A stretch of 64,000 bases of DNA from NCBI RefSeq assembly GCF_003334335.1, contig NZ_QOWQ01000026.1; one strand, 5' to 3'. This stretch comes from Escherichia coli. Lineage in GTDB: Bacteria > Pseudomonadota > Gammaproteobacteria > Enterobacterales > Enterobacteriaceae. Positions 11,576-14,802 of the stretch are shown in pieces (the first letter of the stretch is position 1; each line of letters begins with the position of its first letter). Below the pieces are notes generated by a model. The model searched no databases and was not told the origin of the DNA. It saw only the letters and a program-made list of their open reading frames with translations. The translations under genes were made by a program, and so were the position numbers.

Positions 11576-13486
11576 TTACCTGGAGGATGGTATCGCAAGG
11601 AAACGAACCGCACGGGCAATGTCACGGGTGCGTGGCGCGGGCGGCAGACTGGCGAGAAACGTCGCGCCGTAAGGACGCATCACCAGCCGATTGTCACAAA
11701 TCACCAGCACGCCACGATCGTCGGCGTCGCGAATCAGTCGCCCTACCCCCTGTTTGAGAGTAATGACGGCATCTGGTAGTTGCACTTCATCGAACGGGTC
11801 GCCACCGCGCAAACGACAATCTTCCATGCGCGCTTTTAACAGTGGATCATCCGGCGAGGTAAACGGCAATTTGTCGATAATTACCAATGACAATGTATCG
11901 CCACGCACGTCCACCCCTTCCCAGAAACTGCTGGTTGCCACAAGAAGCGCATTACCGGCGCTGACAAATTGCTGCAACAGTTGCCCTTTGCTGGTTTCCC
12001 CCTGCAACAATACAGGAAGCGTCATGGTAGCGCGGAACTGCTCGGCCAGATCGCGCATCATGGCGTGCGAGGTACAAAGCATAAAACAACGACCGTTGTT
12101 AGCTTCGATGATCGGTCGCAGCATTGCCGCTAACTGGCGAGCAGAACCTGGCTGGTTGGTTTGCGGCAGATTGCGCGGCACACAGAGTAACGCCTGGCGG
12201 CTGTAATCAAATGGGCTGGGCAACAGCAACGACTCGGCCTGTTCGATGCCAAGCCGCGAGGTGAAATGATGCAGATCGTCGTTCACCGACAGCGTTGCTG
12301 AGGTGAAGATCCAGCTACCGGGTTTTTGCGCCATTAACTCTTTGAATTTATCCGCCACGCTGAGCGGCGTGAGAGCCAGAGTAAAATGGCGCGAAGTGCA
12401 TTCGTACCAGTAGCTGTAGCCCGGCTGATTGATCTCTTTTAGCCGCTTCAGCCGTGTGCGATACAACGTGGCGCGCTCAAATGCCGCATCCAGCAAGGCG
12501 GAACGCCCCAGTGACAGTTTCGCCACGTCATAACAAAGTTCCAGGGTGTCATCGAGCAGTAAAAATGCCCGCTGAATTTGCGGATTAGCTAACAGCTCAC
12601 GCAGGTTACCGCGATAACCTGGCTCACCGAGTTGCAGACGAAAATCCTGCGCACTCTGGGCAAGACGATCAGCGCACTTTTGTAACTGCTGGGTGTCTTT
12701 TAATTCGGTGCGGTAGGCGATGGTGATGTCTTTTGCCAGGTCGAGCAGTTGTCGACTGGAGAGTGACTGACCAAAATACTGGCTGGCAATGTCCGGTAGC
12801 TGGTGGGCTTCGTCGAAGATCATGACGTCCGCTTCCGGGATCAGTTCGCCAAATCCACTCTCTTTAACCACCATATCCGCCAGAAAGAGATGATGGTTTA
12901 CCACCACCACATCGGCGTCCATCGCTTTTTTACGTGCTTTGACCACAAAGCAATCTTTATACATCGGGCAGTCGCTGCCAAGACAGTTGTCGTTGGTGCT
13001 GGTGACCAGCGGCCACGCCTGTGAATCTTCCGCCACGCTGACGCAGGTGCTGATATCACCATCGACTGTTTGATTAGACCAGGAGCGCAGCAGGATCACA
13101 TCGCTTAAGATTTGTACCGGCAGATCGCCCCCCGCCAGCGCCTGCTGTTCGAGACGTTCGAGGCAGAGGTAGTTTGAGCGCCCTTTCAGCAGCGCCACGT
13201 TGCCCGTATATTTCAATGCCTTTGAGACTGTTGGCAAATCGCGGCTGTAGAGCTGATCCTGCAACGCTTTTGAGCCGGTCGAGATAATGACTTTCTTTTT
13301 CGCCCGCAGCGCAGGAGCCAGGTAAGCGTAGGTTTTGCCCGTACCGGTTCCTGCTTCCACCACCAGCGGCTGGCCTTTTTCTATCGCCTGGGTGACGGCT
13401 ACCGCCATCTGTCGCTGTGGTTCTCGCGGCTTAAAGCCTGGTATCGCTTTCGCCAGCTGACCGTCTGGTGCAAAATCGTCCGTCAC
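11576..13486 (-). CDS. yoaA: DinG-family ATP-dependent helicase YoaA
   Basis: ORF track 636 aa; GTG start; Walker A GTGKT and DEAH box. Confidence 0.9.
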   Translation of the reverse strand: MTDDFAPDGQLAKAIPGFKPREPQRQMAVAVTQAIEKGQPLVVEAGTGTGKTYAYLAPALRAKKKVIISTGSKALQDQLYSRDLPTVSKALKYTGNVALLKGRSNYLCLERLEQQALAGGDLPVQILSDVILLRSWSNQTVDGDISTCVSVAEDSQAWPLVTSTNDNCLGSDCPMYKDCFVVKARKKAMDADVVVVNHHLFLADMVVKESGFGELIPEADVMIFDEAHQLPDIASQYFGQSLSSRQLLDLAKDITIAYRTELKDTQQLQKCADRLAQSAQDFRLQLGEPGYRGNLRELLANPQIQRAFLLLDDTLELCYDVAKLSLGRSALLDAAFERATLYRTRLKRLKEINQPGYSYWYECTSRHFTLALTPLSVADKFKELMAQKPGSWIFTSATLSVNDDLHHFTSRLGIEQAESLLLPSPFDYSRQALLCVPRNLPQTNQPGSARQLAAMLRPIIEANNGRCFMLCTSHAMMRDLAEQFRATMTLPVLLQGETSKGQLLQQFVSAGNALLVATSSFWEGVDVRGDTLSLVIIDKLPFTSPDDPLLKARMEDCRLRGGDPFDEVQLPDAVITLKQGVGRLIRDADDRGVLVICDNRLVMRPYGATFLASLPPAPRTRDIARAVRFLAIPSSR

Positions 13487-13617: not shown

Positions 13618-13962
13618 ATGACTATCGTTCGTATCGATGCTGAAGCCCGCTGGTCTGATGTAGTAATCCACAACAACACGCTCTACTACACTGGTGTACC
13701 GGAAAACCTCGACGCCGATGCCTTTGAGCAAACCGCCAACACGCTGGCACAGATTGACGCCGTGCTGGAAAAACAGGGCAGCAATAAATCGAGCATTCTG
13801 GATGCCACCATTTTCCTGGCCGATAAAAACGACTTCGCGGCGATGAATAAAGCGTGGGATGCCTGGGTTGTCGCGGGTCATGCGCCGGTGCGCTGCACGG
13901 TACAAGCGGGTTTGATGAACCCGAAGTATAAAGTTGAAATTAAGATTGTGGCTGCGGTGTAA
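13618..13962 (+). CDS. yoaB: RidA/YjgF-family protein
   Basis: ORF track 13570..13962 trimmed to ATG at 13618 (114 aa, MTIVRID...); GAGGA SD upstream; tandem ATG at 13615. Confidence 0.85.
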   Translation: MTIVRIDAEARWSDVVIHNNTLYYTGVPENLDADAFEQTANTLAQIDAVLEKQGSNKSSILDATIFLADKNDFAAMNKAWDAWVVAGHAPVRCTVQAGLMNPKYKVEIKIVAAV

Positions 13963-14383
13963 GCTTTATCGAAGCAAAATAAGTCAGACGATAATTTATC
14001 GATAATACTGGTCGGTTTTACATAAATCGACCAGAGAATAAGATATTACTGTTGATGCTTCTGCTAATTCATTATTTATATTTATAATTTCAATTTTATC
14101 TATAAAACTAACTATATAAATAAACATAAACATGCCGTTGTGTTCGCCCTTTGATTAGCAACTCTGGTTTTCTTTCTTAGCTGAACAATCTGGTTATAGC
14201 GTGCGGACTGACCGTTAAATTTCTCCATCTTACTGGATAACACACCATGAGCTGCTACCTTTAAAACACCTGAATGTCAACAGGTTAACTCGTGCCATAT
14301 CGTTATAATCCCTTTGATATTAGATGCAAATTAAGGTCATATATAGCCTTATCGATAACATGGTTAATTTTAAGGATAAGAAT

Positions 14384-14683
14384 ATGCCTGCTGTAATAGA
14401 TAAAGCCCTGGATTTCATTGGTGCCATGGATGTATCAGCGCCAACACCAAGTTCGATGAATGAAAGCACGGCGAAGGGAATCTTTAAATATTTAAAAGAA
14501 CTGGGAGTACCCGCGAGTGCCGCTGATATTACGGCGCGAGCTGACCAGGAAGGCTGGAACCCTGGGTTCACGGAAAAAATGGTTGGATGGGCAAAAAAAA
14601 TGGAGACAGGTGAACGTTCTGTGATTAAAAATCCTGAATACTTTTCAACATATATGCAGGAAGAACTAAAAGCACTGGTCTGA
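14384..14683 (+). CDS. yoaC: uncharacterized protein YoaC (DUF1889)
   Basis: ORF track 14324..14683 trimmed to ATG 14384 (99 aa) with AAGGA SD. Confidence 0.8.
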   Translation: MPAVIDKALDFIGAMDVSAPTPSSMNESTAKGIFKYLKELGVPASAADITARADQEGWNPGFTEKMVGWAKKMETGERSVIKNPEYFSTYMQEELKALV

Positions 14684-14711
14684 GTTAAATTTATATCAGC
14701 ATAAATGGGTC

Positions 14712-14749
14712 AGGACGCTTTTAATCACATATAAAAAGCGTCCTTTTTC
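14712..14749. terminator. bidirectional intrinsic terminator between convergent yoaC and yoaH
   Basis: Perfect stem AGGACGCTTTT / AAAAGCGTCCT with 10-nt loop, flanked by T-tract. Confidence 0.7.
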
Positions 14750-14802
14750 TCACAATCAAATGATCATCGGCTTCTATAACGAAATCGATACGGATTAGTG
14801 TG

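Follow-up and report, generated by a model that had tools for sequence, protein, structure and literature searches.

According to our analysis, the DNA between yoaB and yoaC of Escherichia coli is very probably a composite of non-coding control elements, comprising the yoaB 3' end, a regulator-bound tract, a filler and the promoter and leader of yoaC, and the minus-strand open reading frame (ORF) that lies in it is not a gene. Conservation across this spacer follows a four-part pattern. In this arrangement the yoaB transcript extends 76 nt beyond its stop codon, as far as a conserved stem-loop, and the left edge of the spacer doubles as the end of that transcript. The AT-rich tract, bound by YhaJ, would probably serve H-NS as well, with nucleation at tCGATAAATT. 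About 100 bp of fast-evolving filler follow, and a conserved proximal promoter with a leader of about 66 nt would drive yoaC, as its conservation suggests. Any functional link from the distal YhaJ site to the proximal yoaC promoter is putative.

The feature is real but ordinary, and its components are already in the literature. The analysis also yielded, as a useful by-product, a map of the region that controls yoaC, a gene of no known function. The map places yoaC together with its upstream DNA in an AT-rich segment that is found at this position only in Escherichia, and it puts the published YhaJ peak far upstream of the conserved yoaC promoter. The locus could serve as a small and tractable case for studying joint control of a recently acquired gene by a core regulator and H-NS; its importance beyond the tidying of annotation is slight. 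The features of the spacer are given below in the coordinates of the window, that is, the whole 64-kb stretch of DNA that was analysed.

13963-14038, plus strand: yoaB 3' untranslated region (UTR), which extends past the stop codon to the mapped 3' end of the RNA
13993-14002, minus strand: H-NS high-affinity motif tCGATAAATT, exact at 10/10 positions, in the yoaB 3' UTR
13996-14005 and 14349-14358, no strand: palindrome TTATCGATAA, with a one-mismatch copy at 14096-14105
13996-14133, minus strand: 45-codon ORF with the peptide MFMFIYIVSFIDKIEIININNELAEASTVISYSLVDLCKTDQYYR, a chance ORF
14008-14034, plus strand: stem-loop ending the yoaB transcript (11-bp stem, 5-nt loop, -15.5 kcal/mol)
14015-14145, no strand: AT-rich core (101-bp windows of at least 78% A+T), which takes in 14040-14140
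14090-14105, minus strand: T-N11-A box TTATAGATAAAATTGA, reported for EHEC and UPEC as the YhaJ motif closest to the ChIP peak (PMC6765310)
14112-14243, minus strand: 43-codon ORF, spurious
14120-14131, no strand: direct repeat of two ATAAAC units, polymorphic
14146-14250, no strand: poorly conserved filler, in which most E. coli SNPs lie
14251-14383, plus strand: genus-conserved block, the candidate yoaC promoter and leader, near-invariant from E. coli to E. albertii
14304-14309, plus strand: candidate -10 element TATAAT (a perfect -10 with a weak -35)
14372-14376, plus strand: yoaC Shine-Dalgarno (SD) sequence AAGGA, in a leader of about 66 nt

Composition and evolutionary setting of the spacer

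The E. coli locus has the gene order yoaA-yoaB-yoaC-yoaH-pabB. The yoaB stop codon ends at 13962 and the yoaC ATG lies at 14384, which leaves a spacer of 421 bp (13963-14383) with an A+T content of 67.5%, in agreement with the AT-rich spacer of this length described in the earlier note. Over 6 kb the window shows four differences from MG1655, none of them within the spacer, and a window position x corresponds to x+1879749 in NC_000913.3. No feature is annotated in the gap between the two genes in MG1655, nor by PGAP in five other strains.

The region 14040-14140 is indeed AT-rich, at 79.2%, just under the figure of more than 80% that had been claimed for it. The AT-richest 101 bp of the entire 64 kb begins at 14033 (82.2% A+T), and one other locus in the window reaches 78% A+T per 101 bp (25569-25704, 81%). 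The repeated motifs noted earlier are also borne out: TTTATA occurs at 14075 and 14081 and TATAAA at 14101 and 14115, which makes four copies against 0.72 expected from composition (P about 0.006). This repetition is real and arises from short slippage-type repeats. In E. coli strain 61, a deletion of 6 bp lies inside or adjoining the ATAAAC repeat, and the deleted unit may be ATAAAC itself. The description of the tract as curved promoter DNA was not supported. In a simple phasing test on 150-bp windows, AA/TT periodicity at 10-11 bp was unremarkable (59th-85th percentile of the window) and gave no sign of intrinsic curvature by A-tract phasing; the conserved candidate promoter lies outside the tract, at a distance of about 200 bp downstream from the AT-rich core.

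The genes yoaB and yoaH converge in Salmonella enterica, Klebsiella and Enterobacter, where only 0-11 bp lie between the two stop codons; in Escherichia these stop codons are separated by 840 bp (13963-14802). This segment consists of the 421-bp spacer, yoaC and a 119-bp terminator region. It has a GC content of 37.1% against 50.3% for the window (62.9% against 49.7% A+T), and equally AT-rich windows of 840 bp make up 0.6% of the window. The homologues of yoaC in Citrobacter, Buttiauxella and Lelliottia sit at unrelated loci. These comparisons show that the segment is specific to Escherichia at this position. The spacer thus belongs to a short lineage-specific stretch of DNA that brought its own control region along. 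When the spacer was compared with plasmids by blastn, the only matches were four E. coli records (96-97% identity); three are of chromosome size (4.8-4.9 Mb) and one is of 420 kb, and no link to a mobile element emerged.

The minus-strand ORFs and the filler

The 45-codon minus-strand ORF is present as the earlier note described, and it is a chance by-product of the sequence, not a gene. Among 2000 dinucleotide-preserving shuffles of the spacer, 24% held a complete ORF with an ATG start and 45 or more codons, so the length of this ORF is no more than chance gives. The remark that it lacks a good SD also stands: in the sequence 5' of its ATG (CTAATCAAAGGGCGAACACAACGGC) there is no usable SD 5-10 nt upstream of the start, and the sole G-rich run lies about 15-17 nt from the ATG.

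Within E. coli, a +1 C insertion, seen in O104:H4 and in E. coli strain 61, shifts the frame of the ORF. This allele was found in 1378 of 5426 complete E. coli genomes with a 50-nt probe that was built so that each 28-mer spans the insertion. The strains CFT073, Z0117EC0055 and FCI29 carry the same allele, in which codon 32 is an in-frame stop. The substitutions at codons 2, 4, 18 and 25 are all nonsynonymous in a small sample of seven alleles, and every substitution within the first 28 codons in this sample changes the amino acid. In five other Escherichia lineages, including E. whittamii and E. albertii, the start codon is absent and tblastn of the peptide gave no match; most of the ORF region is missing from one of the five. 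Given the frameshifts, the stop at codon 32 and the loss of the start outside E. coli, the frame is not conserved in relatives; this is the refuting outcome that the earlier note had named, and it bears out the doubt about the ORF expressed there.

That the ORF encodes a real small protein of the K-12/O157-type lineage, as a young de novo gene, seems to us hardly credible. Such a reading could appeal to the frame, which is intact in K-12-type and O157-type alleles, and to the label "hypothetical protein" that some automated annotations give it; the exact peptide occurs in databases only under that label, in some automated E. coli and Shigella records. Against it stand the chance-level length, the missing SD, a frame that is shifted or truncated in most lineages, and first 28 codons that carry nonsynonymous changes only. 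Furthermore, the minus-strand promoter-like site would begin transcription downstream of the ORF ATG, neither the coordinates of the ORF nor the gene names have an entry in the supplement of the one ribosome-profiling study of small ORFs that was searched, and the ORF overlaps the regulator-bound region, with the reported YhaJ box falling inside it. In its presence in some automated records, its restriction to one species, its lack of an SD and its unconserved frame, the ORF resembles the spurious "hypothetical protein" ORFs of AT-rich intergenic DNA, from which it shows no notable difference. Neither this ORF nor the neighboring one of 43 codons, both of which are "hypothetical proteins" in some records, should be treated as a gene.

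The 43-codon ORF lies largely in the filler, which can be aligned only in patches in other Escherichia species. Escherichia sp. MOD1-EC7003 and E. coli XJ5.2 have shorter spacers of divergent sequence, from which the filler and the AT-rich core are largely missing. A six-frame comparison of the filler across species found no reading frame that is kept, and a pseudogene remnant was therefore rejected. When six peptides from the spacer and its relatives were compared with NCBIfam, nothing was obtained beyond a sub-threshold match of the 43-codon ORF to the YciY family (E = 0.017, 15 bits against a cut-off of 30), which was taken as chance. A search of the spacer against Rfam at a permissive threshold yielded only eukaryotic snoRNA noise (E above 3).

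The yoaB transcript end and the AT-rich tract

The yoaB mRNA ends at 14038, at a conserved hairpin, as the published 3' end and the covariation of the stem establish. In the Term-seq data of Adams et al. (2021, supplementary file 1, three growth conditions, PMC7815308), a 3' end is listed twice at MG1655 1893787 on the plus strand. It maps to window position 14038, 4 nt past the stem, and the yoaB message thus extends 76 nt beyond its stop codon. The stem-loop folds in all 10 Escherichia sequences examined. Pairing in the stem was found in 90.5% of cells, against 22-43% when the partner was slid (nine sequences), and two stem pairs show compensatory changes, one from GC to AU and one from UA to CG in three sequences, in a set of only nine.

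In its GC-containing 11-bp stem just 5' of a mapped 3' end, and in its compensatory changes, the structure resembles other stem-loops that end mRNAs. It differs from classical intrinsic terminators in that the E. coli stem is followed by AGAGAAUAAG and has no U-tract, and a scan for Rho-independent terminators found none in the spacer. Because the hairpin is without a U-tract in E. coli, the yoaB 3' end may come from non-canonical termination or from exonuclease trimming to the stem-loop once transcription has terminated farther downstream. The sequence of Escherichia sp. E1V33 has an A-run on one side of the stem and a U-run on the other, an arrangement like that of a bidirectional terminator.

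Published ChIP-seq shows that YhaJ, a regulator of the LysR type, occupies the AT-rich tract in vivo, and the evidence for this is the peak, not the motif. Peaks were assigned to yoaC in both EHEC and UPEC, and yoaC was named among the known YhaJ-regulated genes (Connolly et al., SI Tables S3 and S4, PMC6765310). The EHEC peaks at yoaC, with peak-shape scores of 10.4 and 21.1, are among the stronger ones in that strain (PMC6765310). When the CFT073 coordinates were mapped, the peak centers at 2045445 and 2045463 fell at 14024 and 14042 and the peak window at 13814-14243. The tabulated box TTATAGATAAAATTGA is the reverse complement of 14090-14105, and its tabulated distance of 66 bp from the CFT073 peak center was reproduced. 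On a YhaJ weight matrix built from 16 other reported sites, this box scored 6.1 bits, below all 16 training sites (8.4-17.3 bits); scores like this occur about 3.25 times per kb of the window on both strands, and the matrix found no strong site anywhere in the spacer. The box retains one good half-site (TAG-N7-TGA against TCA-N7-TGA). It is invariant in six E. coli alleles, and its TTGA half-site is lost in other Escherichia species.

A LysR-type box usually lies at about -65 relative to the promoter that it regulates. The center of the reported box (about 14097) is about 220 bp upstream of the predicted yoaC TSS (about 14316). In EHEC and UPEC alike, yoaC resembles the YhaJ targets yqjF, yhhW, ybiJ and yhaK in having a ChIP peak close to a T-N11-A box; at ybiJ and yhhW, as at yoaC, the peak is hundreds of bp upstream of the start codon. 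The yoaC box differs from those targets in its chance-level score and in its distance of about 210 bp from the predicted -10, rather than a position of about -65. The YhaJ transcriptome supplement does not mention yoaC, and we found no published footprint or reporter data for this gene. The best matches to the YhaJ matrix in the window lie at 13213-13225, inside yoaA, and at 61728-61740 (13.7 bits); they are near-perfect TCA-N7-TGA palindromes (TCAATGCCTTTGA and TCAAAACCATTGA), and the one in yoaA is outside the published peak window.

Binding of H-NS to the spacer, which the earlier note had proposed, is plausible in view of the AT-rich segment restricted to Escherichia and of the exact match to tCGATAAATT, a motif taken from Lang et al. 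(2007, PMC2094087). This match is the sole exact copy in the 64-kb window, and it lies in the yoaB 3' UTR, not in the tract at 14040-14140. The motif is exact in E. albertii and at Escherichia locus L012 and has one mismatch at Escherichia loci L009 and L010. With one mismatch allowed, seven matches were found in the window against 5.2 expected, which is at chance level. Our search found no literature linking H-NS and yoaC. The spacer resembles acquired DNA silenced by H-NS, such as proU and bgl, in being a lineage-specific segment of low GC content with an exact tCGATAAATT site, flanking AT-rich DNA and many TA steps; it differs from such DNA in that the segment is just 840 bp long, has one exact site and shows no A-tract phasing.

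The 64 kb contain only two exact copies of the palindrome TTATCGATAA; both belong to the spacer and are separated by 353 bp, one toward each end. Its one-mismatch copy overlaps the reported YhaJ box. With one mismatch allowed, 11 matches were found in the whole window against 1.7 expected. Taken together, the motifs could be read as a counter-silencing switch, in which H-NS would shut off yoaC and YhaJ and/or YeiE would relieve this silencing, a model that we regard as unlikely. H-NS would nucleate at tCGATAAATT beside the yoaB terminator and spread over the acquired segment, and YhaJ and/or YeiE would act 200-300 bp upstream of the promoter with no direct activation of RNA polymerase. The TTATCGATAA palindromes at 13996 and 14349 could then anchor a bridged loop.

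The candidate yoaC promoter and leader

The genus-conserved block combines a perfect candidate -10 with a poor -35, which would make it the kind of promoter that needs an activator. Owing to the poor -35, the candidate was not called in a promoter scan, and no coordinates matching a yoaC TSS were found in the Cappable-seq supplement. In ChIP-exo and expression data, the LysR-type regulator YeiE binds upstream of RNA polymerase at yoaC and activates this gene (Gao et al.). Inside the block, the predicted TSS is preceded at about 50 bp by a T-N11-A box (TTAAAACACCTGA, 14261-14273). This box matches the YhaJ autoregulatory site TCAAAATTCCTGAATG at 13 of 16 positions, scores 5.4 bits on the YhaJ matrix and is outside the published ChIP peak window. 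It may be the YeiE site or a second LysR-type site.

Most yoaC loci of Citrobacter, Lelliottia and Buttiauxella retain two leader motifs in slightly varied form: the leader-start motif C[CT]CTTTGA[TA]AT, which the Buttiauxella loci are without, and the SD-proximal GGTTAATTTTAAGGATAAGA. The latter lies within 30 nt upstream of yoaC and shows at most a few substitutions across these genera, in which YoaC is 66-75% identical. The remaining DNA upstream of yoaC is unrelated across Citrobacter, Lelliottia and Buttiauxella. Because GGTTAATTTTAAGGATAAGA is more conserved than an SD alone needs, it may be the site of a translational regulator.

The comparison supports the annotated start at 14384 (the 99-aa YoaC of RefSeq), because neither of the in-frame upstream ATGs, at 14324 and at 14361, is kept in other Escherichia species. 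A 119-aa YoaC from the unconserved ATG at 14324 was rejected as the true product. This longer form appears in many database records, in a cluster of 961 members, and accounts for the "distance to gene" value in the YhaJ ChIP table.

An alternative to the composite control region is that the AT-rich tract and the filler are inert remnants, that the YhaJ signal is opportunistic and that yoaC is controlled entirely from the proximal 130 bp. The chance-level score of the reported YhaJ box would agree with this, as would the rapid evolution of tract and filler, which tolerate indels and are largely missing in one Escherichia lineage and in one E. coli strain keeping yoaC; so would the presence of a box of comparable score, close to the YhaJ autoregulatory site, in the conserved block. 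We nevertheless consider this alternative improbable, for the YhaJ peak recurs in two pathotypes and ranks with the stronger peaks of EHEC, its center at 14024-14042 is separated from the proximal block by more than 200 bp, and that block falls outside the peak window; in addition, the H-NS motif and the hairpin region are conserved genus-wide.

Another reading invokes a minus-strand transcript, either a small RNA or a spurious one silenced by H-NS, which would start in the AT tract or at a perfect TTGACA inside the conserved block (14280-14275, minus strand) and end at the hairpin. AT-rich acquired DNA carries spurious promoters, and here the promoter-like sequence TTTATA-16-TAAAAT runs from 14120 to 14093 on the minus strand. 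On that strand the yoaB hairpin is followed by a T-rich run, and the E1V33 hairpin has U-runs on both strands. Promoter-like sites are, however, not enriched over shuffled sequences (2 found against 3.4 expected), no minus-strand Term-seq 3' end falls in the spacer, and the nearby minus-strand ends are only those of the yoaH terminator and of a Rho region inside yoaC (PMC7815308). With no Rfam match and poor conservation of 14040-14250 as well, a transcript of this kind is highly improbable. The composite control region thus remains the reading that we prefer.

Deletion of yoaC gave the strongest sensitivity to boric acid in one screen (PMC11502571). In E. coli 98215, an IS1 interrupts the yoaC leader downstream of the predicted -10 and upstream of the SD; its two flanks have 14327-14337 in common, which would fit a short target-site duplication. 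In E. coli XJ5.2, an IS1 element removed most of yoaC, and the spacer allele that is left is divergent and closer to the cryptic-clade sequence L008 than to typical E. coli.

The yoaC-yoaH spacer (14684-14802) contains a bidirectional terminator with the hairpin AGGACGCTTTT...AAAAGCGTCCT. This hairpin is flanked by the Term-seq ends at MG1655 1894497/8 on the plus strand and 1894457 on the minus strand, that is, window positions 14748/9 and 14708, and a region of Rho-dependent termination antisense to yoaC is located at MG1655 1894397 on the minus strand (PMC7815308).
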